DNA of 64,000 nucleotides from Lentisphaerota bacterium (GTDB lineage: Bacteria; Verrucomicrobiota; Kiritimatiellia; RFP12; JAAYNR01). Below, in pieces: positions 6,406 to 22,042 of this stretch. Positions within the stretch are counted from its first letter, which is position 1. Each line of letters opens with the position of its first letter. The DNA lies in the NCBI GenBank assembly GCA_016873675.1, contig VGWG01000005.1, positions 5,648 to 69,647 of the forward strand, given 5' to 3'. Both the position numbers and the translations under genes were made by a program. The notes below the pieces were generated by a model. That model saw only the letters and a list, made by a program, of their open reading frames with translations. It was not told the origin of the DNA and ran no database searches.

Positions 6406-7353
6406 ATGAACAAACCCATTCTCATCATCGGCGACGGCAAGGCCGGGCACGTCAATCAGTCCAAGGCGTTTTGTGACAGCCTCGGCCAGCCGTTCGTGAT
6501 TGCCGACGTCGTCTACCGCGCCAGGTGCTGCAAGGCACTGGCCTATCTGGCTGATCGCTGTCGGCTGAGGCTCGCGTGCCTCTATCGATTCACGGCCCCC
6601 CTTCCTGCGGGCCCCTTCGCGGCCGTGGTCTGCACTGGGTCGACGGCCTTCTATCCCGGCAAAGTCACCGCTCGCCGTCTCGGGATTCCGGTCGCCGCGA
6701 TCCTGAACCCCAGAGGCTGGCGACCCGATTTCGACGTGATTCTCGCGCCCGCCTTCGACAATCCCCGCCCGCGCCCCAACCTCATCACCCTGCCGGTCAA
6801 CCTCACCTCGGTCAACCCGGCGTTCTATGCCGCCGGCGTCGCCGCATTTCGCGAACGACACACGTGGGAAAAGCCCGCCGTCGGCGTCATCATCGGCGGA
6901 CCCAACGACGTGGCCGAAATGACCGCTCGGGGCATGAAGATTCACCTGGATCGCGTATTCGCCGCTACCGAAGGGTGTGAGCGATGGGTCACCACCTCGC
7001 GCCGCACGCCGCCCGAGGTTGAGGCGTTGGTCGATTCCTATCCCTTTGACTACAAGCTCCTGTTCTCACACAATAACTTCAACCCGATCCCCGCCTTCGT
7101 CTCCCTCTGCCACACCCTGTTCGTGACGGCCGACTCGACCGGCATGATCAGCGAGGCGGTCACCCGCGGCAGCGCATCGGTCGAAATCCTCATGACTCTG
7201 CGCGATCCCGCCTCCAAGTTCGCCCGGTTTGTGCGAAACATCGAGACGGCGGGCGCCGCCCATGTCTTCGACGGCGCCTGCGCCGCCGCCCGCACGAAAA
7301 TTGACCTCTCCCCCGCCCTCCGCGCCGCCGCCGCCCGACTGGGGATCGGCTAG
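6406..7353 (+). CDS. ELM1/DUF1022-family protein (putative glycosyltransferase-like)
   Basis: A 315-aa protein MNKPILIIGDGKAGHVNQSKAF...PNLITLP...GVIIGGPN. The pattern matches bacterial ELM1/GtrOC1-type proteins as I recall them. Confidence 0.45.
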   Translation: MNKPILIIGDGKAGHVNQSKAFCDSLGQPFVIADVVYRARCCKALAYLADRCRLRLACLYRFTAPLPAGPFAAVVCTGSTAFYPGKVTARRLGIPVAAILNPRGWRPDFDVILAPAFDNPRPRPNLITLPVNLTSVNPAFYAAGVAAFRERHTWEKPAVGVIIGGPNDVAEMTARGMKIHLDRVFAATEGCERWVTTSRRTPPEVEALVDSYPFDYKLLFSHNNFNPIPAFVSLCHTLFVTADSTGMISEAVTRGSASVEILMTLRDPASKFARFVRNIETAGAAHVFDGACAAARTKIDLSPALRAAAARLGIG

Positions 7354-7596: not shown

Positions 7597-7657
7597 AAAA
7601 TAGTGCGTTTGCCCTTGGCGCTTGAACCGCCAGCCCTGGCAATGTTATAGTGACCGC

Positions 7658-9715
7658 ATGAGCACCACACGAAGAATCGTTGTCACCTCCGCGCTGCCGT
7701 ATGCCAATGGCGACATCCACATCGGCCATCTGGTGGAGTATGTGCAGACCGATTTCTGGGTCCGCTTTCAAAACATGCGCGGCCATGCGTGTGTCTATGT
7801 CTGCGCCGACGACACCCACGGCACGCCGATCATGGTCCGCGCCCGCAACGAGGGGATCACCCCCGAGGCGCTGATCGCCCGCAGCCACGAGCAGCATGTC
7901 CGCGACTTCACCGATTTCGAGGTGGCCTTTAACCACTACGGCTCGACCAACTGCGAAGAGAATCGCGCCTTCAGCACCCGCATCTTTTCCCGGATGGAGT
8001 CGGGCGGCCACGTCTCCTCCCGCCTCGTCCCCCAACTCTACTGCGAGCACGACGGCATGTTCCTTCCCGACCGCTTCGTCAAGGGCGGCTGCCCCGCCTG
8101 CGGCGCGCCCGGTCAGTACGGCGATTCGTGCGACACCTGCGGCGCGACCTATGCCGCCGAAGAGCTGAAGGAACCGGCCTGTACCGTCTGTGGCCGCCCC
8201 CCCGTGACGCGCGACAGCGAACACCTCTTCTTCGAACTCGACCACTTCCGCGATTACCTCCAGACCTGGATTCCGGCCCATACCGCCAAGGACGTGGCGA
8301 ACAAGCTGCTGGAATGGTTCGGCGAGTCGCTGCGCGGGTGGGACATTTCGCGCGACACGCCCTATTTCGGCTTTGAGATCCCCGGCCACCCCGGCAAGTT
8401 CTTTTATGTCTGGGTCGATGCGCCGATCGGCTACATGGCCTCGCTGGAGAATTGGTGCAAGCAGAACAACGCGCAGTTCGAGGACTGGTGGAACAACCCC
8501 GATGTCGAACTCGTCCACTTCATCGGCAAGGATATCGTCCGATTCCACTGCCTCTTTTGGCCCGCTATGCTGGCCTGCAGCGGGTTCAAGGGCCCCAATC
8601 AGGTCTTCGTCCACGGATTTCTGACCGTCAATGGCGAGAAGATGAGCAAATCCAAGGGGACGTTCATCAGCGCGCGAACCTTTCTGGACCATCTGGAGGC
8701 GCAAACCCTCCGCTTCTACTATGCCTGCAAGCTCAACGGCACGACCGACGATGTTGATCTCAACTTCGACGATTTCATCAACCGCGTCAACTCCGATCTG
8801 GTCGGCAAGATCACCAACCTCGCCTCGCGCGGCGCGCAGATGCTCCATAAGCATCTCGACGGCAAGGCTGGCGTGTGTGACGCCGCAGGCGCCGAGGTGC
8901 TCGCTCACGCGCAAGGCCGCGCCGACGCCATCGCCGACGCCTATGAAAAGCGCGACTTCGCGCGCGTGATGGTCGAGGTGCGCGACCTCGCCGACCGCGC
9001 CAACCAATACTTTGACGCCCAGGCGCCCTGGGCGCTGATCAAACGCGACCCCGAGGCCACCCGCCGCGTGCTCACCGCCACACTCAACCTCTTCCGCACC
9101 CTCGCGATCTACCTCAAGCCGGTCCTGCCTGGCTACGCTGCCAAGGTCGAGACACTCTTCGGCGAGCCACCCTATCGCTGGGCCGACGCCCAAACGCGCG
9201 TCGAGAACCGGGCGATCGCGCCGTATGCCTACCTCGCCACGCGGGTCGAACGCGAACCCATTGATCGCATGATCGAGGCCAGCCGGAGCCGCGCGCAACC
9301 CCCCGCTCCACACACCCACACACCCACGCACCCACACACTCACACACCCACTCCCACACCCCCGGCAAAGCCGCTCGCCGCGCCAGCGATCATTCCGTTT
9401 GAGACTTTTGCGCAAACCGATTTGCGGGTCGCGCGGGTGCTCTCGGCCGAAACGGTTGAGGGCTCCGACAAGCTCCTGCGCTTGATGCTCGATCTGGGCG
9501 ATGGCAAACCGCGCCAAGTCTTTTCGGGTATCCGCAAGGCTTATGCGCCTGAAACGCTGGTCGGCCGCAGCGTCGTGGCGGTCGCCAACCTCGCGCCCCG
9601 CAAGATGCGCTTCGGCGTGTCCGAGGGGATGGTTCTCGCCGCGTCCAATCCCGATGGCACGCTCTTCCTCGTCACTCCCGACCCCGGGGCCGCTCCCGGC
9701 GCATCCGTGGCCTGA
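7658..9715 (+). CDS. metG: Methionine--tRNA ligase with C-terminal EMAP/Trbp111-type tRNA-binding domain
   Basis: HIGH motif ([12 protein letters not shown]), KMSKS (EKMSKSKG), the zinc knuckle CPACGA...CDTCG, and a C-terminal [15 protein letters not shown]...MVLA domain. An unusual His/Thr/Pro linker [22 protein letters not shown] separates the two. Confidence 0.92.
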
Positions 9716-11558: not shown

Positions 11559-12216
11559 AATCAAAATCTGCGGACTCACCGACCCGGCCGAGGCGCGCGC
11601 GTGCGCCGAGGCTGGCGCCGACGCCATCGGCCTGGTCTTCCATCCGCCCAGCCCGCGGAATCTGGAGCTCGCCCGCGCCCGCGCGATCAGCGACAGCCTG
11701 CCGCCGCGCGTTGCTCGGGTTGGCGTCTTTGCCGATGCCGATGCCGACACCATCCTGCGCATCGCCGCTGTGGCGGGGCTCACCGCGATCCAGCTCCACG
11801 GCGCCGAATCACTGGCCGCCCTGCCTCGTCTCCTTGGTGCCCCCTACCGCATCATCGCCGTTCTGCGCTCGACGGCGGGGCTGATTCAGGCGGCTCGCGC
11901 GCTACCCGAAACCGTCGGCATTCTGGTCGAGTGCGGCCGGGGCGTTTTGCCCGGCGGCAACGGCGCCACCTGGGAGTGGGCCGCCGCCGCACCCCTCGCC
12001 TCCGTCCGCCCTTTCGCCCTCGCCGGCGGCCTCTCGCCCGATACGGTCGTCGAAGCCGTCCGCGACGCGCGCGCCGCCGCTGTGGACATCAGCTCCGGTG
12101 TGGAGTCATCGCCCGGCCGGAAGGATGTGGTCCGCGTCCGTCTCCTCATCCGCCGTCTCACGGAGGCCTTCATCGACCTTCCCGGCCCCGCACACGCCGT
12201 CTTTCGCAGCCTGTGA
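11548..12216 (+). CDS. trpF: Phosphoribosylanthranilate isomerase
   Basis: MPIEIKICGLTDPAEARACAEAGADAIGLVF...IQLHGAE. It overlaps the trpC stop by 11 nt. The ORF-track entry 10852..12216 is an upstream extension. Confidence 0.85.
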   Translation: MPIEIKICGLTDPAEARACAEAGADAIGLVFHPPSPRNLELARARAISDSLPPRVARVGVFADADADTILRIAAVAGLTAIQLHGAESLAALPRLLGAPYRIIAVLRSTAGLIQAARALPETVGILVECGRGVLPGGNGATWEWAAAAPLASVRPFALAGGLSPDTVVEAVRDARAAAVDISSGVESSPGRKDVVRVRLLIRRLTEAFIDLPGPAHAVFRSL

Positions 12217-12288
12217 CGCTCAGGCAGAAATCCAGCAATCGCGATTTGACAATCGGTGATCCCTGTGCGAAAATGCGGCCTCTTTTTT

Positions 12289-12364
12289 GGCGGGTTAGCT
12301 CAGTTGGTAGAGCAACGGAATCATAATCCGTCTGTCGGGGGTTCAAGTCCCTCACCCGCCACCA
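12289..12364 (+). tRNA. tRNA-Met (anticodon CAT; could be tRNA-Ile2/lysidine type)
   Basis: GGCGGGTTAGCTCAGTTGGTAGAGCAACGGAATCATAATCCGTCTGTCGGGGGTTCAAGTCCCTCACCCGCCACCA. The 7-bp acceptor is GGCGGGT/ACCCGCC, the D-arm AGCTCAGTTGGTAGAGC, the anticodon stem ACGGA/TCCGT with loop ATCATAA, the T-arm GGGGGTTCAAGTCCCTC, and CCA is encoded. It is followed by a hairpin AAAACCCCGGCGTTGCTGGGGGTTTTT. Confidence 0.85.
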
Positions 12365-12640
12365 GCCAAAAAGCCCCACAAAACCCCGGCGTTGCTGGGG
12401 GTTTTTCATTTTACGCCCCGGTTTGCGGGCAAGCCCCGGTTGAGTGGCGTTCGTTCTTGTCCGATTCGTTTCTGACGTGGTATCCTTTCCGGTCTATGAC
12501 CGTGTCAGCATTCATTTCCAAGTGGCGTAAGGTGGAATTGAAGGAGCGCTCCGCCGTTTACGGCTGGTCCGCCGACCTCACCGACGATGCAATCCTCGAA
12601 CGGCTTATGCGTTGAATTCGGGGAATGCAAAAGGATGCCC

Positions 12641-14098
12641 ATGTTTGAACAAGCCTTCAAAAACATCGACGACGTCCTCTGGAAAGACGCTGGCTGCACC
12701 AGCGAACTCGATTACACCGAGCAGACCTCCTGGTTGCTCTTCCTGAAGTACCTCGACGCCCTGGAGACCGATCGCGCCACGGCGGCCGCCCTGAACGGCA
12801 AGACCTATACCCACATCCTCGACGCCCCCTTTCGCTGGGCCACGTGGGCCGCCCCCAAGGGCAAGGACGGCAGGATCGACCACAACACCGCCCTCTCCAG
12901 CGACGACCTCATCGCCTTCGTCAACGGCAAGCTCTTTCCCTACCTGCACGGCTTCAAGGCCAAGGCCACCGGCCCGAACACCATCGAATACAAGATCGGC
13001 GAAATCTTCGGCGAGATCAAGAACCGCATCCAGAGCGGCTACAACCTGCGCGAGATCATTGATCACATCGACGAACTCCGCTTCCAGTCCCAGACCGAGA
13101 AGCACGAGCTCTCGCACCTCTACGAAGCCAAGATCAAAAACATGGGCAACGCCGGGCGCAACGGCGGCGAGTATTACACCCCGCGCCCGCTCATCCGCGC
13201 CATCGTCGCCGTCACCGCGCCCCGGCTCGGTGAGACCCTCTGCGACCCCGCCGTCGGCTCGGCCGGCTTCCTCTGCGAATCCTTCGAGTACCTCCGTGTC
13301 CAGAACCCCCAGCGCACCACCGCCCAGGACCGCACCCTGCAAGAGCGCACCTTTTACGGGAAGGAAAAGAAGTCCCTCGCCTACGTCATCGCGATCATGA
13401 ACATGATCCTGCACGGCATCGAGGCGCCCAACATCATCCACACCAACACGCTCGCCGAGAACCTCGCCGACGTGCAGGAAAAGGACCGCTTCGACATCAT
13501 CCTCGCCAATCCGCCCTTCGGCGGCAAGGAGCGCAAGGAGGTGCAGCAGAACTTCCCCATCCGCACCGGCGAGACCGCCTTCCTCTTCCTCCAGCACTTC
13601 ATCAAATTCCTCAAGGCCGGCGGCCGCGCCGGCGTCGTCATCAAGAACACCTTCCTCTCCAACACCGACAACGCCTCCGTCAGCCTGCGCCGGAAGCTGC
13701 TGGAGGAGTGCGACCTCCACACCGTGCTCGACTGCCCCGGCGGCACGTTCATCGGCGCCGGCGTCAAGACCGTGGTCCTCTTCTTCCAGAAGGGCGCCAA
13801 GACGCGCAAGGTCTGGTTCTACCAGCTCGACCCCGGCCGCAACATGGGCAAGACCAACCCGCTCAACGACGCCGACCTCGCCGAGTTCGTCGCGCTCCAG
13901 AAGACCAAGGCCGACTCGCCCAAGAGCTGGAGCGTGGACGCGGCGGCCATCGATCCGCAGACCTTTGACCTCTCCGTCAAGAACCCCAACGCTGGCGAGG
14001 CGGTCGCCCACCGCACCCCGCAGGAGATCATGGACGAAATCGCCGCGCTGGATGCCGAGAGCGCCGAGGTGCTGGCCAACATCCGAGGGCTGCTATGA
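12641..14098 (+). CDS. hsdM: Type I restriction-modification N6-adenine DNA methyltransferase subunit
   Basis: MFEQAFKNIDDVLWKDAGCTSELDYTEQTSWLLFLKYLD is the HsdM N-domain. Motif I is DPAVGSAGFL and motif IV is NPPFGG. Alternative in-frame starts are 12635 and 12587. The stop overlaps the next gene. Confidence 0.9.
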   Translation: MFEQAFKNIDDVLWKDAGCTSELDYTEQTSWLLFLKYLDALETDRATAAALNGKTYTHILDAPFRWATWAAPKGKDGRIDHNTALSSDDLIAFVNGKLFPYLHGFKAKATGPNTIEYKIGEIFGEIKNRIQSGYNLREIIDHIDELRFQSQTEKHELSHLYEAKIKNMGNAGRNGGEYYTPRPLIRAIVAVTAPRLGETLCDPAVGSAGFLCESFEYLRVQNPQRTTAQDRTLQERTFYGKEKKSLAYVIAIMNMILHGIEAPNIIHTNTLAENLADVQEKDRFDIILANPPFGGKERKEVQQNFPIRTGETAFLFLQHFIKFLKAGGRAGVVIKNTFLSNTDNASVSLRRKLLEECDLHTVLDCPGGTFIGAGVKTVVLFFQKGAKTRKVWFYQLDPGRNMGKTNPLNDADLAEFVALQKTKADSPKSWSVDAAAIDPQTFDLSVKNPNAGEAVAHRTPQEIMDEIAALDAESAEVLANIRGLL

Positions 14099-15162
14099 GC
14101 GAACTGCCGGCCAGGGACTACGGCGACTTTCTGGTTGCAGTCAAGACCCGCATCCGGCAGGCGCAATACCAAGCGTTGCGGGCGACGAACAAGGAGCTTC
14201 TGACGCTCTACTGGGACCTGGGCGAGTCCATCCACCGCAAGCAGGATGCGCTGGGATGGGGCCGATCCGTGGTTGAGACGCTTGCCAGCGACCTCCAGGC
14301 TGAGTTCCCGGGGCGGAACGGTTTCTCAGCCCGCAACCTCTGGAACATGAGGGACTTCTACACCGAATATTCCGCCAGGCCAAAACTGCAACCGCTGGTT
14401 GCAGAAATCAGTTGGGCTAAAAACCTGGTCATCATGGCCCGTTGCAAGGATGACTTGGAGAGGGAGTTCTACCTCCGCGCCACCGCGCGCTTCGGCTGGA
14501 CCAAGGCCGTGCTCCAGCACCAGATCGACAACAAGAGCTACGAGAAATACCTGCTCAACCAGACCAACTTCGACGCGACCCTGCCCGCCGAGATCAAGGC
14601 GCAGGCGGCGCTGGCGGTCAAGGACCACTACACCTTCGATTTTCTCGACCTGGCCGAGGAGCACTCCGAGCGCGAACTGGAGCGGTCCCTGGTCAACAAC
14701 ATCCGCCGATTCCTCGCCGAAATGGGCGGTGCCTTCACCTTTGTCGGCAACCAGCACCGCCTGGAGGTGGGCGGACAGGAATACTTCATCGACCTCCTGC
14801 TGTTCCACCGCCGCCTCCGCTGCCTGGTGGCGATCGAGCTGAAGATCGGCAGTTTCGAGCCGGAGCACAAGGGCAAGATGGAGTTCTACCTGGAGGCGCT
14901 CGACGCGCAGGAGCGCATCGACGGCGAAAACCCGCCCGTCGGCATCATCATCTGCCGCGACAAAAACAAGACCGTGGTCGAATACGCCCTGCGCACCGCG
15001 GGCCGCCCCATCGGCGTCGCCACCTACACCGTCGTCCCCCAACTGCCCGCAACCTACCGCGACCAGCTCCCCAGTCCCGAAGCCATCGCCGAACGCCTCC
15101 GCCTGTGGGCCGCCGAGAGCGCCCGACAAGCCGCCGCTGACCAGGCGGAGGGGGCGGGATGA
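14095..15162 (+). CDS. PDDEXK-nuclease-fold protein YhcG/DUF1016, embedded in the type I R-M operon
   Basis: A 355-aa protein with ...YWDLG..I...W..NLVIMARCKD..EREFYL...GWTKAVLQHQI...FDFLDL...ELE..L...FLAEMGGAFTFVGNQHRLEVGGQEYFIDLLLFHRRLRCLVAIELKIG, the DUF1016 pattern. Its location between hsdM and hsdS is classic. Confidence 0.75.
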   Translation: MSELPARDYGDFLVAVKTRIRQAQYQALRATNKELLTLYWDLGESIHRKQDALGWGRSVVETLASDLQAEFPGRNGFSARNLWNMRDFYTEYSARPKLQPLVAEISWAKNLVIMARCKDDLEREFYLRATARFGWTKAVLQHQIDNKSYEKYLLNQTNFDATLPAEIKAQAALAVKDHYTFDFLDLAEEHSERELERSLVNNIRRFLAEMGGAFTFVGNQHRLEVGGQEYFIDLLLFHRRLRCLVAIELKIGSFEPEHKGKMEFYLEALDAQERIDGENPPVGIIICRDKNKTVVEYALRTAGRPIGVATYTVVPQLPATYRDQLPSPEAIAERLRLWAAESARQAAADQAEGAG

Positions 15163-16322
15163 AGAAGGGGTGGCAGACAAAGACGCTGGGGGACGTCTGC
15201 GCTTTCGACAAAGCGCAAGGCATCCACCGGGGTTTGCCTTACGTCGGGCTTGAACACATCGAGTCTCACACAGCGCGTTTTATCGGCTCAAGCGAGCCGC
15301 AGCCTGTCAAAAGCTCGACGTTTCGATTTTCCGACGAGCACGTTCTCTACGGGCGGCTTCGACCTTATCTGAACAAGGCACTCGCGCCGGATTTCGAGGG
15401 CCATTGCTCAACGGAAATCTTCCCACTGAAGCCGCGCCCTGAACTCTCGCGGGAATATCTGCTGTTTTGGCTGCTGGCTGATGAGACGTGTGACCGCATC
15501 AACGAGACTTGCACGGGCGCACGAATGCCACGCGCTCAGATGAACGACGTGCTCGGCTTTGAGATTCCCGTCCCCCCCCTCCCCGAACAGCGGCGGATCG
15601 TCGGCCTGCTCGACGAAGCGTTTGCGGGCCTCGCCACCGCCAAAGCCAACGCCGAAAAGAACCTCCAGAACGCCCGCGCCCTCTTCGAAAGCCACCTCCA
15701 ATCCGTCTTCGCTGACCAATGGCATGTTGGTAAGTTGGTTACACTCTCGGAGTTGGCCACTGACATCACGGACGGCGACCATCTGCCACCGCCGAAGTCT
15801 CCAACCGGTGTACCATTCATCACCATAGGAAACATCGTGAAGGAGACCCGCGAGATTGATTTTAGCGACACCTTCATGGTGCCTCGCGCTTACTTTGACG
15901 CTCTTAAAACCTACAAGAAGCCTCGGCGGGGAGACGTTCTTTATACCGTCACCGGTTCATTCGGAATCCCCGTCATTGTCCGTGATGACGCCGAATTTTG
16001 CTTCCAGCGGCACATTGGCCTTGTTCGTCCGAAGCCCGAGATAAGCAGTTCCTGGCTCTACTATCTCCTCATGTCTCCACAGTTGCTCAAACAGGCAAAT
16101 GAAGGTGCCACGGGCACGGCACAAAAGACTGTTTCATTAAAACTCCTCCGCAGTTTCATGGTGCCCAAGGTTGCGCCGAACCAACAGAGGCAAGCTGTGG
16201 GAAAACTTGACGCCCTCAATGCCGAAACCCGCCACCTCGCCGCCATCTACTCCCGCAAGCTCGCGGTGCTGGAGGCGTTGAAGAAGTCGCTGCTGCACCA
16301 AGCCTTCACCGGAGAACTCTGA
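15159..16322 (+). CDS. hsdS: Type I R-M specificity subunit (two target-recognition domains)
   Basis: The conserved central repeat is LPPLPEQRRIVGLLDEAFAGL and the C-terminal repeat is LRSFMVPKVAPNQQRQAVGKLDAL...LKKSLLHQAFTGEL, separated by two variable TRDs. It is translationally coupled on both sides. Confidence 0.85.
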   Translation: MKKGWQTKTLGDVCAFDKAQGIHRGLPYVGLEHIESHTARFIGSSEPQPVKSSTFRFSDEHVLYGRLRPYLNKALAPDFEGHCSTEIFPLKPRPELSREYLLFWLLADETCDRINETCTGARMPRAQMNDVLGFEIPVPPLPEQRRIVGLLDEAFAGLATAKANAEKNLQNARALFESHLQSVFADQWHVGKLVTLSELATDITDGDHLPPPKSPTGVPFITIGNIVKETREIDFSDTFMVPRAYFDALKTYKKPRRGDVLYTVTGSFGIPVIVRDDAEFCFQRHIGLVRPKPEISSSWLYYLLMSPQLLKQANEGATGTAQKTVSLKLLRSFMVPKVAPNQQRQAVGKLDALNAETRHLAAIYSRKLAVLEALKKSLLHQAFTGEL

Positions 16323-16324
16323 CC

Positions 16325-16999
16325 ATGCCCAATGCCCCAATCACAGAACGCACTTCCAATCCTGCCGAAATCACCACGGTCGGCATCGATGTGGGCGGCG
16401 AACGCAAGGGTTTTCACGCCATCGCGATTACCAACGGAGATTATTCGAGCCACCTTGCCACAAAGGACGTGCAGGAACTTTCCTGCTGGTGTCGTGATAC
16501 GGTGCGAGCACAAGTCATCGCTGTGGATGCACCGTGCGGCTGGAGCATCGACGGACATTCACGCCCCGCCGAGCGCGAGCTAATGCAAAAGAGCATCTGG
16601 TGTTTCTCAACGCCGACGCGAGAGAAGGCAGTCGGGCATCCCACCAATTACTTCGGCTGGATGCTGCGGGGCGAGGCGTTGTTTCGTGCGCTCGAAAATG
16701 ACTTCCCCCTTTGTCGCAAACTGCCCGCAACAAACCGGAAGTGCTGCTTCGAGACTTTCCCGCACGCCATCACCTGGCATCTGCGGGGTGGCAATGCCGA
16801 TGCTCGGCGTAAGCGTGAACAACGCCGGGCCTTGCTGACGCAGGCGAGAATCGACATCACCGGGTTGACAAACATCGACCTCGTTGATGCCGCGCTCTGC
16901 GCCCTCACGGCTAACCGCGCCGCCACGGGCGGTGCGTGCGTGAGTTTCGGTGAGCAGAACACCGGATTGATCATCGTACCCACCCAACCCAACCTATGA
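16325..16999 (+). CDS. DUF429-like predicted RNase-H-fold nuclease, embedded in the R-M operon
   Basis: A 224-aa protein with VGIDVGGERKGFHAIAI...VIAVDAPCGW...DLVDAALCALTA. Size and motif spacing match DUF429 as I recall it. It starts 3 nt after the hsdS stop. Confidence 0.5.
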   Translation: MPNAPITERTSNPAEITTVGIDVGGERKGFHAIAITNGDYSSHLATKDVQELSCWCRDTVRAQVIAVDAPCGWSIDGHSRPAERELMQKSIWCFSTPTREKAVGHPTNYFGWMLRGEALFRALENDFPLCRKLPATNRKCCFETFPHAITWHLRGGNADARRKREQRRALLTQARIDITGLTNIDLVDAALCALTANRAATGGACVSFGEQNTGLIIVPTQPNL

Positions 17000-17106
17000 A
17001 CACCACCGAACCCCAGCGCCTCACCGCCATCTGCACCCGAAAGCGCGCCACGCTGGGGCAGTTGAAGAAGTCGGTGCTGCACCAAGCCTTCACCGGAGAA
17101 CTTTAG
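16996..17106 (+). pseudogene. Orphan 3' fragment of a second hsdS allele (36 codons)
   Basis: It encodes MNTTEPQRLTAICTRKRATLGQLKKSVLHQAFTGEL. The hsdS C-terminus at 16250-16322 reads ...LAAIYSRKLAVLEALKKSLLHQAFTGEL. The final ~43 nt are near-identical (gaagaagtcgGtgctgcaccaagccttcaccggagaactTtag versus ...tcgCtg...actCtga). Confidence 0.65.
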
Positions 17107-17116
17107 GAGACGCCCC

Positions 17117-18157
17117 ATGAGCAGGGAAAAGAAACTCCAGATTCGTAACAGCACCGCCGAGTTCCTGATCTTCACCCGGCAGGCGGGCGAGGACGGCATC
17201 GAGGTGCGCGTCGAAGACGAGACCGTCTGGCTGACGCAGAAGCTGATGGCGGCGCTGTTCGAGGTGACCGTTCCGACCATCAGCGAGCATCTGGCCAACC
17301 TATATGCCCAAGGTGAAATCTCCGAACCGGCAACTCTTCGGAATTTCCGAACAGTTCAAAAGGAGGGTGCCCGCGATGTCGCCCGGAATATGGATTTCTA
17401 CAACCTCGACGCCATCATCGCCGTAGGCTTCCGGGTGAACTCCGTCCGCGCCATCCAGTTCCGGCAATGGGCCACAGGCGTCTTGCGGGATTTCGCGATC
17501 CGCGGCTACGTGCTGGACAAGGAGCGGCTGAAGAACGGGGCGTTCCTGAGCAAGGAGTATTACGAAAACCTGCTGGCGGAGATTCGCGAGATCCGGGCGA
17601 GCGAGCGGAAGTTCTACCAAAAGATCACCGACATCTACGCCACGGCGATGGATTACAGCCCGGAGGCGGAGACGACCCAGACATTTTTCGCCACAGTGCA
17701 GAACAAGCTGCATTTCGCCATCCATGGCCGTACCGCCGCCGAACTGATTGTGGAACGGGCGGACAGCAAAAAGGAGCGCATGGGCCTGACGACCTGGAAG
17801 AACGCGCCGCACGGGAAGATCCTCAAGCCGGACGTCGTGGTGGCAAAGAACTACCTCACCGAAAAGGAACTGAAGTCACTGGATCGGATCGTGACGATGT
17901 ATCTGGATTACGCGGAAGATCAAGCCGAGCGCGGCATCCCAATGACCATGCGGGACTGGGCGACCAAGCTGAACGCGTTCCTCCAGTTCAACGAACGGGA
18001 CATTCTCGATCATCCGGGGAAGGTGAGCCAGGCGGTGGCCAAGGCCTTTGCCGAAAGCGAGTTCGAGAAGTACCGGATCGTACAGGATCGCCTGTTTGAG
18101 TCGGACTTCGACCGGCATATCAGGAAGGCTTTGGAAGGCGGCAAGGAAGAATCATGA
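17117..18157 (+). CDS. rhuM: RhuM-family protein (R-M/island-associated DNA-binding protein)
   Basis: ETVWLTQKLMAALFEV, FYNLDAIIAVGFRVNS, RASERKFYQKITDIYATAMDYS and IVTMYLDYAEDQAERG closely follow the RhuM consensus. RBS AGGAGA is present. Confidence 0.8.
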   Translation: MSREKKLQIRNSTAEFLIFTRQAGEDGIEVRVEDETVWLTQKLMAALFEVTVPTISEHLANLYAQGEISEPATLRNFRTVQKEGARDVARNMDFYNLDAIIAVGFRVNSVRAIQFRQWATGVLRDFAIRGYVLDKERLKNGAFLSKEYYENLLAEIREIRASERKFYQKITDIYATAMDYSPEAETTQTFFATVQNKLHFAIHGRTAAELIVERADSKKERMGLTTWKNAPHGKILKPDVVVAKNYLTEKELKSLDRIVTMYLDYAEDQAERGIPMTMRDWATKLNAFLQFNERDILDHPGKVSQAVAKAFAESEFEKYRIVQDRLFESDFDRHIRKALEGGKEES

Positions 18158-20646
18158 ACGAAGCCGAAACCAGAGCCGAGCACATCGACCCCGCACTTGC
18201 CGCGGCGGGTTGGGGCGTCGTTGAGGGGAGCCGCATCCGGCGCGAGTACCCGATCGCGCCGGGCCGCATCGAGGGGCTCGGCCGGCGCGGCAAGCCGCTC
18301 ATCGCCGACTACATCCTGGAGTACCGCAACCGCAAGCTGGCCGTGGACGAGGCCAAGGCATGGGATGTTGAGTTGACCGAGGGGGTGGCGCAGGCCAAGA
18401 ACTACGCCGGCAAGCTCGCCGTCCGTTTCGCCTACGCCACCAACGGCCGTGGCATCTACGCCGTGGACATGCAGACCGGCAGGGAAGGCGAGATCGCCCG
18501 CTATCCGACCCCCGACGAACTCTGGGCCATGACCTTCGCCGGGGAGAACGCTTGGCGGGACCGGTTCACGGCCGTGCCGTTCGAGGACAAGGGCGGCTCG
18601 CACCCGACCCGGTACTATCAGGACACCGCCATCGAGCGGGTGATGGATGCCATCGCGGCGAACCAGCCGCGCATCCTGCTCACGCTCGCCACGGGCACGG
18701 GCAAGACCTTCATCGCCTTCCAGATCGCCTGGAAGCTCTTCCACTCCCGCTGGAACCTCTCCCGCGAGCCTTCCCGCCGGCCGCGCATCCTGTTCCTCGC
18801 CGACCGGAACATCCTGGCGAACCAGGCCTACAACGCCTTCTCCGCCTTCCCCGAGGATGCGCTGGTGCGGATCGAGCCGGACGACATCCGCAGGAAGGGC
18901 AAGGCGCCGAAGAACGGCAGCCTGTTCTTCACCATCTTCCAGACCTTCATGACCTCCGGCGCCCAGGCGTCCGATGAAGTCAATACGGTCAACGCGGTCA
19001 AACCCGCCGTCGCCCCGCCGCCGATCTATCCGCTGGCGGAGGACGAGGTCGCCCCCTTGGACATGGCGGCGGAACCGCCCGCGCTCTTCGGCGAATACCC
19101 GCCGGACTTCTTCGACTTCATCGTCATTGACGAGTGCTACCGCGGCGGCGCGAACGACGAGAGCGCCTGGCGCGGCATCCTCGAATACTTCGCCCCGGCG
19201 GTGCAGATGGGGATGACCGCCACGCCCAAACGCGAGGAGAACGTGGACACCTACCGCTACTTCGGCGACCCGGTCTACATCTACTCCCTCAAGGACGGCA
19301 TCAACGACGGCTTCCTGACGCCATTCAAGGTGAGGCAAATCCAGACCACGCTTGACGAGTACGTCTACACGCCCGATGATTGCGTTTTGGAAGGAAGCAT
19401 CGAAGAGGGCAAGCTTTACGACGAGGAAGACTTCAATCGCATCATCGAGATCAAGGAACGGGAGAAGAAGCGGGTTGAAATCTTCATGGCGCTGATTGAC
19501 CAAAAGGAAAAGACCCTCGTCTTTTGTGCGAGTCAAATTCACGCGTTGGCCGTCCGCGACCTGATCAACCAGATGAAGACCAGCGCCGACCCGAACTACT
19601 GCCAGCGGGTGACGGCGAACGACGGCGCGCTCGGCGAGCAGCACCTGCGCGACTTCCAGGACAACGAGAAGACGATCCCGACGGTCTTGACCACGTCGCA
19701 GAAGCTTTCGACCGGCGTGGACGCCCGCAACGTCCGCAACATCGTCCTGATGCGGCCCATCAGGCGGATCATCGAGTTCAAGCAGATCATCGGGCGCGGC
19801 ACGCGGCTTTACGACGGCAAGGACTACTTCACGATCTACGACTTTGTGAAGGCGTGCCAGCATTTCAGCGATCCCGAGTGGGACGGCGAGCCGCTCGAAC
19901 CGGAGCCCTGCCCGAAGTGCGGCTGCCAGCCGTGCGCGTGCGTAAAGCCGCCGCCGCAAGCGTGCCCCGTCTGCGGCCAGGCGCCCTGCGTCTGCCCGCC
20001 GGGTCCCTGCCCGAGATGCGGCCAGCGGCCATGCGTATGCAAAAAGCGGGAAAGGGTGAAGGTAAAACTGGCGGACGGCAAGGAGCGCACCATCCAGCAC
20101 ATGATGATGACCAGCTTCTGGCACCCCGACGGCACGCCCATGTCCGCGCAGCAGTTCATGGAACTGCTCTTCGGCAAGCTCCCGGACTTCTTCAAAGACG
20201 AAGCCGAACTCCGCGCCATCTGGAGCGCTCCCGACACGCGCAAGAAGCTCTTGCAAGGGCTGGCCGAGAAAGGTTTTGGCCACGACCAACTATCCGAAAT
20301 GCAGAAGATCATCGACGCCGAAAAGAGCGACCTGTTCGATGTGCTGGCCCATGTGGCCTACGCCTTGCCGCCGGTCACCCGCGAAGTGCGGGCCGCGAAC
20401 GCCAAAGTCCACATCAACGCCCAGTTCAATGCCAAGCAGCAACTCTTCCTTGATTTTGTGCTCCAGCACTACATCACGGTCGGCGTGGAAGAACTGGACC
20501 AGGAAAAACTCACGCCGCTGCTCCTCCTCAAATACCACAACTCCCTCGCGGATGCCGTCGCTGACCTCGGCGGCCGGCCCGAAGAAATCAACAAAACCTT
20601 CGCCGGTTTCCAGAAGTATCTTTATCAACAAACGGCTGCGGCGTGA
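18154..20646 (+). CDS. hsdR: Type I restriction endonuclease R subunit (EcoEI-like C-terminal domain) with a Cys-rich insertion
   Basis: N-terminal HSDR_N (ETRAEHIDPALAAAGW...IADYILEY), helicase motifs (LATGTGKT, DEC, MTATP, TGVD, QIIGRGTR) and a C-terminal EcoEI_R_C-like region. Between them sits 3x CPxCGQxPCxC (CPKCGCQPCACV / CPVCGQAPCVCP / CPRCGQRPCVCK), encoded by a ~45-nt tandem repeat at 19905-20040. The start overlaps the rhuM stop. Confidence 0.85.
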   Translation: MNEAETRAEHIDPALAAAGWGVVEGSRIRREYPIAPGRIEGLGRRGKPLIADYILEYRNRKLAVDEAKAWDVELTEGVAQAKNYAGKLAVRFAYATNGRGIYAVDMQTGREGEIARYPTPDELWAMTFAGENAWRDRFTAVPFEDKGGSHPTRYYQDTAIERVMDAIAANQPRILLTLATGTGKTFIAFQIAWKLFHSRWNLSREPSRRPRILFLADRNILANQAYNAFSAFPEDALVRIEPDDIRRKGKAPKNGSLFFTIFQTFMTSGAQASDEVNTVNAVKPAVAPPPIYPLAEDEVAPLDMAAEPPALFGEYPPDFFDFIVIDECYRGGANDESAWRGILEYFAPAVQMGMTATPKREENVDTYRYFGDPVYIYSLKDGINDGFLTPFKVRQIQTTLDEYVYTPDDCVLEGSIEEGKLYDEEDFNRIIEIKEREKKRVEIFMALIDQKEKTLVFCASQIHALAVRDLINQMKTSADPNYCQRVTANDGALGEQHLRDFQDNEKTIPTVLTTSQKLSTGVDARNVRNIVLMRPIRRIIEFKQIIGRGTRLYDGKDYFTIYDFVKACQHFSDPEWDGEPLEPEPCPKCGCQPCACVKPPPQACPVCGQAPCVCPPGPCPRCGQRPCVCKKRERVKVKLADGKERTIQHMMMTSFWHPDGTPMSAQQFMELLFGKLPDFFKDEAELRAIWSAPDTRKKLLQGLAEKGFGHDQLSEMQKIIDAEKSDLFDVLAHVAYALPPVTREVRAANAKVHINAQFNAKQQLFLDFVLQHYITVGVEELDQEKLTPLLLLKYHNSLADAVADLGGRPEEINKTFAGFQKYLYQQTAAA

Positions 20647-20711
20647 CGAATCGGGTCGCCCGCCGCGAGCCCCCCTTTCCCCTTTTCAGCTTTCCTCTTT
20701 CGGCCAGACAA

Positions 20712-20893
20712 GGGACGGGCCTGAATGGCGTGAATGGCGCTAAGTTAAGGGGCTATTGCCATCTTAATCGTAATCGTAATCTTGATCTTAATATTAATCT
20801 TAATCTCTTGGTGGAGAACGGATTACGATTATGATTATGATTATGATTATGATCGGAAGCATCGCTTTACTTAGCGCCATTCGGGACGGGCCT
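20712..20893. mobile_element. MITE-like non-coding element: 10-bp direct repeats flanking 14-bp terminal inverted repeats and an AT-rich palindromic core
   Basis: Direct repeat GGGACGGGCC at 20712-20721 and 20884-20893. Inverted repeat GAATGGCGCTAAGT (20731-20744) versus CTTAGCGCCATTC (20870-20882). The core is (TAATC/GATTA)-type pentamer runs arranged as an imperfect palindrome around a 15-nt centre, locally AT-rich in a 65% GC genome. It lies 70 bp after the hsdR stop. Confidence 0.5.
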
Positions 20894-20989
20894 TGCATCT
20901 CTCCGGGTGCCTGCAGAACCGACGAAGGAAATGTTGCAATCGCCTCGTAGGGTAACACCCCATCGCCAAAAAAAAGCACGCCGTGCATC

Positions 20990-22042
20990 ATGACGCCCAT
21001 GACCATAGACATCGACAAGCGATCCACGGTGCTCATGCTGTTGACACTGCTCCTTCCCGCACTGACACGTGGCGCGGGCTCGGACATCTCGGCAGGCACC
21101 TTCGGCGTGTACATGGAGAACGACATGTATGCCGGCACGGACCACTACTACACCAGTGGTTCCAAGCTCACGTGGAGTTCTCCCAATCTCGAAACGCTCA
21201 GCGACTCCCCGTATGCCAGCCCGTTCCTGCCGATGTTTGATCGGTTGCCCTACATCAACGCAAGCGACTATCAAAAGAACCTCGTTTTCGCACTTGGGCA
21301 GAACATCTACACGCCCGACGACACCGAGTCGTCTGGGCTGCTCGGCGATGATCGCCCCTACGCGGGCTGGCTTTACATGGGGCTCGGCATCGTGTGGAAA
21401 GATGCGCGGGTGAGAAACTCGCTCGTGCTGAGTATCGGCGTCGTCGGCCCATGGGCCTACGCGCATGAAACCCAGCGCCTGATCCATGATGCGCTTGATC
21501 AAGATCATCCGAATGGATGGGAGAATCAACTACACAATGAACTCGGTGTGAACCTCGCGTACGAACGGATTTGGCGTCTTCCCAAGCTCACGAAACGCAG
21601 CGGGCTTGACTGGGAGCTCCTGCCCCATGGAGGCGCGGTGGTAGGAAACGTCTATACCTATGTCAACCTCGGCGCCGAACTGCGCGCTGGCTTGAATCTG
21701 CCCGATGATTTCGGAACCGGAGTGATCGGTCCGGTGGCCACCACCTCGACGCCCGTCGATGGCATGATGGGCGCAGATCGTTCCCGCTTTGATCTGGGGA
21801 TGTATGTCTTCGCCCGAGCCGATGGCCGCGCGGTGGGACGCAACATTTTGCTGGATGGAAACACCTTTGGGAGTGGCCCATCCGTGGGGCATAATCCCTT
21901 CGTCGCTGATCTCAGCCTCGGCGTGGCCCTGAACATTAAGAATACCAAGATCGCCTACGCCTCTGTCTATCGGACCCGTGAGTTCGACAGCCAGCAGGAC
22001 GCCCAAATCTTCAACATGGTCTCACTCAACTGGACCTTCTAA
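20990..22042 (+). CDS. lpxR: LpxR-family outer-membrane lipid A 3'-O-deacylase (DUF2219)
   Basis: Signal peptide, then GVYMENDMYAGTDHYYTSG (LpxR starts ENDxxxxxDxxYTxG), an OMP beta-barrel with C-terminal ...SLNWTF. Confidence 0.6.
   Translation: MTPMTIDIDKRSTVLMLLTLLLPALTRGAGSDISAGTFGVYMENDMYAGTDHYYTSGSKLTWSSPNLETLSDSPYASPFLPMFDRLPYINASDYQKNLVFALGQNIYTPDDTESSGLLGDDRPYAGWLYMGLGIVWKDARVRNSLVLSIGVVGPWAYAHETQRLIHDALDQDHPNGWENQLHNELGVNLAYERIWRLPKLTKRSGLDWELLPHGGAVVGNVYTYVNLGAELRAGLNLPDDFGTGVIGPVATTSTPVDGMMGADRSRFDLGMYVFARADGRAVGRNILLDGNTFGSGPSVGHNPFVADLSLGVALNIKNTKIAYASVYRTREFDSQQDAQIFNMVSLNWTF

Follow-up and report, generated by a model that had tools for sequence, protein, structure and literature searches.

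Why does the end of a specificity-subunit gene occur a second time, as an open reading frame (ORF) of only 36 codons, in the middle of a type I restriction-modification (R-M) operon? The locus that raises this question lies in a 64,000-nucleotide stretch of Lentisphaerota bacterium DNA (contig VGWG01000005.1, positions 5,648 to 69,647), called the window below and numbered from its first letter. In it a single plus-strand operon (12587-20646) carries, in this order, hsdM, a DUF1016 gene, hsdS, a DUF429 gene, the 36-codon mini-ORF, a RhuM-family gene and hsdR (Table 1). A preliminary description, made from the letters alone, had proposed that the mini-ORF repeats the C-terminal end of HsdS and is a footprint of recombination. 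ORF translation, a repeat search and alignment confirmed the first point, and the second is borne out as well, in that the recombination put DUF429 and RhuM side by side. As described below, the mini-ORF is probably a recombination seam and not a gene with a function of its own; the seam is probably a chimera of an hsdR start and an hsdS tail, lying where a DUF429 cassette and a RhuM cassette were joined in one operon.

Results

The mini-ORF is a remnant of hsdS

From the translation of the mini-ORF (MNTTEPQRLTAICTRKRATLGQLKKSVLHQAFTGEL) and the C-terminal end of the intact HsdS (...LNAETRHLAAIYSRKLAVLEALKKSLLHQAFTGEL), it is clear that the two share their ending. The repeat search returned two direct copies of 97 nt with 84% identity, 784 nt apart, and pairwise alignment agreed; copy A forms the final ~32 codons of the intact hsdS, copy B lies within the mini-ORF, and the pair is the largest repeat family within 12000-21000. 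The near-identity had been put at the last 43 nt. Such a core does exist (42 nt, one mismatch), but the similarity is longer, covering ~32 codons, so that in the self-comparison of the region it is not limited to fewer than ~20 nt. The two copies do flank the DUF429 gene, as had been stated. Within the 64-kb window, the 42-mer core GTTGAAGAAGTCGCTGCTGCACCAAGCCTTCACCGGAGAACT has two occurrences, one exact (16277-16318) and one with a single mismatch (17061-17102), and none of 100 dinucleotide-preserving shuffles gave any match.

The mini-ORF product matches the extreme C-terminal ends of PADLOC profiles for type I specificity subunits (E 0.002-0.005) and HsdS proteins in tblastn (62-66% over 32-34 residues), with no Pfam match, Methylase_S included. 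Its alignment to HsdS is confined to the ~30 last codons and contains no target-recognition domain (TRD), so the mini-ORF is not a functional hsdS. Nucleotide and protein homology, the hsdS frame and a stop codon at the homologous position identify it as an hsdS 3′ remnant. Tail B is identical to the intact tail A at 33 of 45 positions in the upstream 45 nt and at 41 of 45 in the final 45 nt; this difference, together with a ratio of nonsynonymous to synonymous divergence (pN/pS) of 1.27 against 0.30 in intact tails, upholds the earlier judgement that the remnant is not a simple duplication, at any rate not a recent one.

Tail B continues into the RhuM cassette

The closest relatives of the RhuM protein (93-94% amino-acid identity) are encoded in loci L169-L172. 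L169 has a complete hsdS whose end is separated from RhuM by 10 nt, and its RhuM and hsdR genes share an ATGA overlap; L170 and L171 have the same type of hsdS-RhuM junction, with hsdS cut by the contig end, and L172 has a seam of its own and an MNT/HEPN-type pair between RhuM and hsdR. The preliminary description had called for a comparison with related hsdS loci. In L169 and L170, the hsdS-to-RhuM junction (...CACCGGAGAACTTTAGGAGAC..) proved to be colinear with the window from tail B onwards: the TAG stop, the 'gagac' spacer and the 10-nt gap before RhuM are all shared, and the GGAG-containing TAGGAGAC is likewise present. Sliding identity to L169 and L171 is ~0.3-0.45 left of 17040, 0.78-1.00 from 17040 to ~18150 and mostly 0.63-0.88 in hsdR; the conserved RhuM block thus starts inside the tail core and stops at the hsdR start. 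Since tail B is colinear with these junctions and the sliding identity begins within it, tail B is the remainder of an hsdS that formerly preceded RhuM. Its identity to the RhuM-linked tails of L169-L172 is 30-32 of 45 positions upstream and 38-41 of 45 in the core.

The RhuM protein is very uniform in sequence, with at least 120 homologues at 86-94% amino-acid identity in unrelated phyla (Holophaga, Geobacteraceae, Verrucomicrobiota). The hsdR genes of L169-L172 are less than 73% identical to that of the window (they fall outside the best matches listed, the lowest of which is at 73%); for DUF429, the nearest relatives have 79-82% identity. These sequence comparisons suggest that the RhuM cassette alone spread widely and recently, RhuM being apparently the more uniform and more recently spreading block.

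A probable hsdR start on the DUF429 side

For the left side of the mini-ORF, we have compared 160 genomic and metagenomic loci that encode DUF429 homologues (161 with the window). In these loci DUF429 often lies directly between hsdS and hsdR, and its stop codon overlaps the hsdR ATG as ATGA in L007, L055, L059, L102, L104, L109 and L133, and as TGATG (1 nt) in L022. In the window (ATGA at 16996-16999) and in L088, L009, L064, L159 and L160, an ATGA overlap opens a mini-ORF that runs into a 5′-truncated hsdS tail; all six share one register, except that L009 and L064 have one codon fewer. L088 also has the DUF429-seam-RhuM order of the window (RhuM 90%, DUF429 73% identity), and in L173 a similar head (ATGAACACTCGCGAAACC) precedes a RhuM-like start.

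The hsdR heads are nearly invariant in 53 loci (ATGAACGA[AG]GCCGAAACC, encoding MNEAET). A DNA search located the string GCCGAAACC (Ala-Glu-Thr codons), exact and in the same frame, both in the hsdS tail of the window (16221-16229) and in its hsdR head (18163-18171). Most seams are joined at the position of GCCGAAACC, and on these sequence matches the string is a plausible microhomology joint. The head of the window seam reads ATGAACACCACCGAACCC, with its ATG in the hsdR-start register. By analogy with the loci above, the left part of the seam is most likely the start of an hsdR that once followed DUF429.

In-frame chimeras recur in related operons

In other loci the two parts of such seams can be read more directly. 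L115 carries an undecayed chimera, ATGAACGAAGCCGAAACC joined to CAACGCCTC (MNEAET followed by QRLARIYEWK..FTGEL), and then RhuM; the seam heads of L008 and L088 are MNQLETQRL.. and MNAAATQRL... At the seam register, the match to the hsdR head is 15/15 in L115 and 12/15 in L008 and L088, all of which exceed the values of 48 of 48 intact hsdS tails. L172 has MNEAETRAEHIDPALK joined to KSLLHQAFTGEL, with the joint at GCGTTGAAG, between RhuM and the MNT/HEPN-type pair. Longer hsdR parts occur in L153 (~15 hsdR codons joined to the tail), L047 (~38 codons, then ..LHRAFNGEL) and L152 (44 codons, then ELQTRRLHELKK.., with frameshifted derivatives in L051, L052 and L145). Since these five kinds of breakpoint, between various cassettes, are all in frame, and no out-of-frame joint of head and tail was found among the loci examined, in-frame seams appear to be favoured.

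Seam-like junctions recur in related operons from many phyla. Orphan tails account for 20 of the 71 tails detected in the 161 loci. Among the 31 loci with a complete hsdS-to-hsdR interval, an inner tail was present in 0 of 8 single-cassette intervals (<1,100 nt) versus 7 of 23 longer ones. When the 36-aa product was searched with phmmer against 1.84 billion representative proteins (E ⩽ 0.001), 17 matches were returned; besides the entry of the ORF itself, 14 of the 16 are short ORFs of 37-105 aa and not full HsdS proteins, located between unrelated small genes in type I remnants. A head of the form M[NS]xxE[TA] or MNxxT, in the same register, is carried by 8 of these 14 (for example P0256, MNEAETQRLARLYERKHAALEALKKSLLHQAFTGALE).

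When the 48 intact tails are ranked by similarity to an orphan tail, that of the same locus falls within the top ~6% in 9 of 10 loci and is strictly the closest in 4, the window included. Because of this ranking, the recombination partners may usually have been closely related operons, or else the copies may exchange sequence afterwards. At the hsdM, DUF1016 and hsdS junctions, no duplicated hsdM or hsdS ends were found above shuffled controls.

Scars of other shapes are present in the same operon family. In L009 (a Chromatiales metagenome-assembled genome), hsdS-DUF429-seam-RhuM (seam at 6690-6776) retains only the first 84 codons of RhuM, and a second tail-like piece (7037-7135, ..SPCKLAEQKALKKSLWRRAFNVDF), a 281-aa ORF and hsdR follow; most of RhuM seems to have given way to a later cassette, with a tail fragment once more left at the joint. 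In L008 (5174-5221), the final 16 codons of a tail (TTGAGGAAGTCGCTGCTGCACTAG...) are joined immediately to the DUF429 stop; since this tail has the resident-type ending ..SGDL, the insert, made up of a 245-aa ORF, the seam and DUF429, is flanked by two resident hsdS tail ends. The picocyanobacterial loci L046 (5049), L060 (3620), L057 (7807) and L085 (1901) contain orphan hsdR heads (13-25 codons) or an internally deleted hsdR, in each case with no hsdS tail attached, and so form another class of scar.

Two candidate markers have been tried and dropped. A Tyr-to-Cys change does not mark common descent of orphan tails, as the Cys is also found in intact tails (L152; P0247, P0248, P0253, P0255). 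The 43-nt core is not a special recombination or att site: it is the most conserved part of all tails, the core of L169 is as close to tail B as that of tail A is, and other orphan tails do not consistently preserve it better than their upstream part.

Proposed joining of two cassettes

Both presumed parental arrangements exist in the loci described above, and the window has the composite one. Parent A would have been hsdS-DUF429-hsdR, with the DUF429 stop overlapping the hsdR ATG as ATGA, and parent B hsdS-(10 nt)-RhuM-hsdR; the window, hsdS-DUF429-[seam]-RhuM-hsdR, would be the concatenation of the two. The right part of the seam (~30 last codons, TAG and 'gagac') would then be the 3′ end of the hsdS formerly before RhuM, and the left part (the ATG overlapping the DUF429 stop, and the second codon, AAC) the start of the hsdR formerly after DUF429. 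The joint would lie at the Glu-Thr codons (GAAACC), which stand in the same frame in the hsdR head (MNEAETR) and in hsdS tails (..EETQRL..). On one side, an illegitimate, microhomology-guided crossover between hsdR head and hsdS tail may have taken place, and on the other a homologous crossover of the ordinary kind, either in hsdR or in hsdM/hsdS; together, the two would concatenate the cassettes and give exactly the product observed. This product fits either direction, with the DUF429 side or the RhuM side as the incoming one. With the joint in frame, the seam ORF runs from a coupled start to the native hsdS stop, and as that stop carries the ribosome-binding site of RhuM, the seam ORF may act as a bridge that passively keeps RhuM and hsdR translationally coupled to the operon.

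Several observations weigh against this interpretation or blunt it. Codons 2-6 of the window seam (AAC ACC ACC GAA CCC) agree with the hsdR head at no more than 10 of 15 positions, the head having decayed, and 29% of intact hsdS tails match it equally well at that register; the hsdR origin of the head thus rests on the ATGA overlap, the register of the ATG and the cleaner relatives. The donor of tail B cannot be named, because the resident tail A is just as similar to it as the RhuM-linked tails are. The similarity of orphan tails to those of their own loci fits unequal recombination, in-situ duplication and gene conversion alike, and the seams joined at codon 6 fit many origins or one origin followed by spread. 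Two thirds of the multi-cassette loci have no detectable tail scar, so that a seam is not the only route to such loci. Finally, pN/pS between the window seam ORF and its closest relative, L173, is ~0.34, a value that taken alone is compatible with constraint.

The alternative that fares best, and that must be kept as a possible if less favoured account, is allele replacement as originally proposed: an older hsdS would already have stood before RhuM, and an incoming hsdS with DUF429 would have recombined into its 3′ end, so that the tail of the older gene was left over. It yields the same product as the joining of two cassettes and differs from it in direction only. The colinearity of tail B with hsdS-RhuM junctions means that an older hsdS beside RhuM did exist, and the lower GC content of the second half of the intact hsdS (0.51-0.54, 15650-16250) is as expected for exchanged TRDs. 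However, the left breakpoint, an ATG on the DUF429 stop in six loci, is left unexplained unless the incoming piece carried an hsdR start, and RhuM is the more recently spreading block (93-94%, versus <73% for hsdR and 79-82% for DUF429). Of the original proposal, therefore, the genuine hsdS 3′ remnant stands, while the locus is better described as a seam of two cassettes whose left end has an ATGA overlap like that of hsdR.

The seam peptide and the remaining alternatives

A second alternative is that the 36-aa product is itself a functional small protein, for example a mimic of the HsdS C-terminal helix with an influence on how the methylase or restriction complex is assembled. The ORF is intact with a coupled start, its last 14 residues are near the family consensus, seam ORFs elsewhere are mostly intact and predicted by gene callers, and the low pN/pS relative to L173 points the same way. 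Against this, tail B differs from tail A by 12.5 nonsynonymous and 3.5 synonymous differences, giving the pN/pS of 1.27, compared with the reference of 0.30 pooled over 1120 pairs of intact tails, and the constraint on the peptide looks relaxed in this comparison. The changes in the helix of the window tail (Y to C, L to R, E to G) are radical, the retained tail length ranges from ~8 to 30 codons among loci, in-frame stops or frameshifts are present in the seams of L064, L008, L153 and L051/L052/L145, and there are no Pfam or PADLOC matches beyond the weak ones to the HsdS C-terminus. The peptide is probably not functional. We have kept a small probability for a function, which we regard as unlikely; the divergence from L173 could date from a stage at which both were working hsdS genes.

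It is less likely still that the tails are att-like target duplications, left when a mobile DUF429 element inserted by a site-specific or nuclease-driven route. Direct repeats do flank the single gene, whose product has a RuvC-like nuclease fold and is spread across phyla at 55-80% identity. But the seven operon proteins scanned contain no integrase or transposase domain, similar seams separate cassettes free of DUF429 (RhuM and the MNT/HEPN-type pair in L172; L174), and DUF429 often lies between hsdS and hsdR without a second tail. There is also a 16% difference between the copies, and on the left the break falls at an hsdR-type start and not at a fixed element end; breakpoints vary among loci.

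The last alternative, in which programmed hsdS variation, by TRD shuffling (as had been suggested) or phase variation, would use the fragment as a silent donor or homology arm, can practically be set aside, even though other type I systems are well known to have shufflons with several, partly incomplete hsdS genes: the fragment has only the C-terminal conserved helix and no TRD, it lies in direct orientation with no inverted repeat pairing it with hsdS in the repeat search, no recombinase or invertase domain was found in the seven operon products (Pfam, PADLOC), recombination between the copies would merely delete DUF429, and no alternative arrangement is present on contigs encoding identical proteins. 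Contigs that encode an identical DUF429, HsdS or RhuM protein all keep the hsdS-DUF429-seam-RhuM order. These were exact-protein look-ups, which return only contigs encoding the identical protein, and the check is therefore insensitive to a variant that has lost DUF429, a deletion that the two direct repeats could occasionally cause.

The operon and its surroundings

HsdM, a two-TRD HsdS and an EcoEI_R_C-type HsdR were all found by domain matches, and the type I R-M operon looks intact from its sequence. Stop and start codons overlap as ATGA at nearly every gene junction, including both ends of the DUF1016 gene (with hsdM and with hsdS), and the hsdR start ATGAACGAAGCCGAAACC overlaps the RhuM stop. 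A simple sequence scan detected no promoter- or terminator-like site at or near the seam, and its sole promoter-like match within the operon is a weak one inside hsdR. The DUF1016, DUF429 and RhuM genes all lie between hsd genes on the same strand and match the PADLOC models PDC-S02, PDC-S44 and PDC-S05, respectively. The operon adjoins tRNA-Met, and its GC content is 0.55-0.66, compared with 0.70-0.73 in the trp genes to the left, the drop beginning after ~12050. The contig belongs to a lake metagenome of JGI (3300020222, Lake Tanganyika), and NCBI attributes the identical DUF429 protein to a Lentisphaerae metagenome-assembled genome.

Table 1. Coordinates of the seam and of the genes and sequence elements around it (window numbering)
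Feature	Position	Strand	Evidence or remark
tRNA-Met (CAT)	12289..12364	+	ARAGORN; left border of the lower-GC restriction island
hsdM, type I methyltransferase	12587..14098	+	Pfam N6_Mtase PF02384 E 2.6e-61, HsdM_N PF12161 E 1.5e-7; PADLOC MTase_I E 5e-163
DUF1016/YhcG PD-(D/E)xK nuclease gene, PADLOC candidate PDC-S02	14095..15162	+	Pfam YhcG_C E 3e-60, DUF1016_N E 2e-45; PDC-S02 E 8e-144
Intact hsdS, 387 aa	15159..16322	+	Pfam Methylase_S PF01420, two stretches; PADLOC Specificity_I E 3e-51, residues 7-387
GCCGAAACC in hsdS tail, proposed microhomology joint	16221..16229	+	Exact match to hsdR head
Direct repeat copy A, hsdS 3′ end	16222..16318	+	Repeat search
DUF429 gene, PADLOC candidate PDC-S44	16325..16999	+	Pfam PF04250 E 7.5e-27; PDC-S44 E 3e-12
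36-codon seam ORF	16996..17106	+	~6 first codons probably hsdR-start-like, ~30 last codons hsdS tail; predicted as a gene on the contig
Direct repeat copy B, orphan hsdS tail	17006..17102	+	Repeat search
RhuM cassette block (tail core, spacer and RhuM)	17040..18150	+	83-97% nucleotide identity to simple hsdS-RhuM-hsdR operons
GGAG Shine-Dalgarno-like motif	17106..17109	+	Seam ORF stop TAG plus GAG, 7 nt before the RhuM ATG
RhuM-family gene, PADLOC candidate PDC-S05	17117..18157	+	Pfam Virulence_RhuM E 3e-113; PDC-S05 E 1e-157
hsdR (ResIII/helicase and EcoEI_R_C)	18154..20646	+	Pfam PF04851 E 5e-32, PF08463 E 2.6e-32; PADLOC REase_I E 1e-125

We have also looked at the DUF429 product on its own account. 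An AlphaFold2 model (predicted local distance difference test score, pLDDT, 90.4) has an RNase H fold, the best match to a PDB structure being the Thermus thermophilus Holliday-junction resolvase RuvC (4ep4_A, E 1e-4, template modelling scores 0.46/0.59), and the protein is thus predicted to be a RuvC/RNase H-like nuclease. Its invariant acidic residues are D22, D68, E143, D185 and D188. Homologues at 55-80% identity are present in Nitrospirota, Verrucomicrobiota, Gammaproteobacteria, picocyanobacteria and others; a PDB sequence search with the DUF429 profile gave no match, and a search of a plasmid collection gave distant Burkholderia matches only. Nothing links the DUF429 protein itself to the seam. 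The RhuM region had no match in an E. coli collection.

Other features of the stretch stand apart from the seam. Between tRNA-Met and hsdM there is a 39-aa ORF (12498-12617, plus strand, MTVSAFISKWRKVELKERSAVYGWSADLTDDAILERLMR) that matches the PADLOC type IIG REase-MTase profile PDLC03627 in two stretches (E 6.8e-6), its residues 21-38 corresponding to profile positions 1001-1018 of 1136, with no Pfam match; from this comparison it looks like an internal-deletion remnant of a type IIG R-M gene, N-terminus fused to C-terminus, and hence like a second scar in the island. Directly 3′ of hsdR (20732-20882) lies a 61-nt inverted repeat (77% complementary, 29-nt gap) with runs of ATCGTA/ATCTTA-like hexamers and a GC content of ~0.47-0.49, which may be an island border or a terminator region. 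Inside hsdR (19900-20047), three tandem Cys-rich units of 45-49 nt each (CP.CG..PC.C motifs) sit between the helicase and EcoEI_R_C domains; HsdR has 830 aa in the window and 787 aa in L169. The metG gene (7622-9715) has a His/Thr/Pro-rich repeat linker (9290-9370) before the C-terminal tRNA-binding domain of methionyl-tRNA synthetase.

Discussion

Gene remnants at recombination junctions are ordinary, and the window seam alone would be ordinary too. It is one clear instance, however, of a recurrent seam that shows the stacking of defence cassettes in type I R-M operons. During the uptake of foreign DNA, homology-facilitated illegitimate recombination and microhomology-mediated joining both occur. 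As in these processes, one end of the event proposed here would be anchored by homology (in hsdR, or in hsdM/hsdS) and the other would lie at a short shared string, GCCGAAACC, or GCGTTGAAG in L172, with new DNA added and partial duplicates of the flanking genes left. What differs is the place of the microhomology, which links the beginning of one operon gene to the end of a second one without a change of frame, so that every seam found is an in-frame mini-ORF; the mechanism itself we infer from its products.

Other known arrangements resemble the seam in part. Duplicated tRNA 3′ ends at genomic islands likewise form a direct repeat of a gene 3′ end that flanks the insert, with the upstream copy functional, but in the window there is no integrase and no exact core, and the downstream copy is fused to the start codon of another gene. 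Integron arrays likewise hold promoterless cassettes in the same orientation in one expression slot, with short recurring separators, and may serve as an analogy; here, in contrast, there is no IntI or attC, the separator is a gene fragment of the host operon itself, and exchange would use general or illegitimate recombination. Phase-variable type I systems, too, have an extra hsdS fragment beside an intact hsdS, but their partial hsdS genes carry TRDs, inverted repeats and a recombinase, none of which the window locus has. Accessory genes in the same orientation between hsd genes, as here, are also found in the rlo genes of C. jejuni, PrrC in EcoprrI and TgvAB in VPI-2 of V. cholerae. The descriptions of such embedded genes, in the parts available to us, cover which genes are embedded and not the junctions, whereas the window junction carries a readable scar.

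The embedding of genes in type I R-M operons is documented: the PDC-S02, PDC-S05 and PDC-S44 models, 'guilt-by-embedding' candidates, derive from genes that sit inside BREX, DISARM and type I R-M operons, as part of 145 PDC systems that the source paper presents as untested candidates (Payne et al., bioRxiv 10.1101/2024.01.29.577857). In the available part of that paper, a 'genomic sink' is the only idea given for how embedding arises (10.1101/2024.01.29.577857). In a literature search of incomplete coverage, we have found no description of seam ORFs joining an hsdR start to an hsdS tail, or of hsd gene ends as exchange arms.

Many anti-phage genes lie within other defence operons. The seams are physical records of such joining, and they point to two short sequences, the hsdS tail and the hsdR head, at which cassettes would be exchanged and stacked. 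For annotation, an ORF of 30-70 codons that ends in ..LLHQAF.GEL between hsdS and hsdR should be read as a seam and not as a gene. The stacking model can be tested by genome surveys and recombination assays; the consequence for this genome alone is small. A broader, tentative view, to which we give rather less than even credence, is that the hsdS 3′ end and the hsdR 5′ start serve as portable homology arms of a recombinase-free cassette slot, through which cassettes are swapped across unrelated phyla. If so, defence genes would be exchanged between type I operons by homologous recombination within these arms, stacking would result when an incoming hsdS tail pairs with a resident hsdR head at an in-frame microhomology, and only in-frame seams would persist, since these keep the coupling of the operon. 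Type I R-M operons would then behave as integron-style platforms made of their own gene ends.

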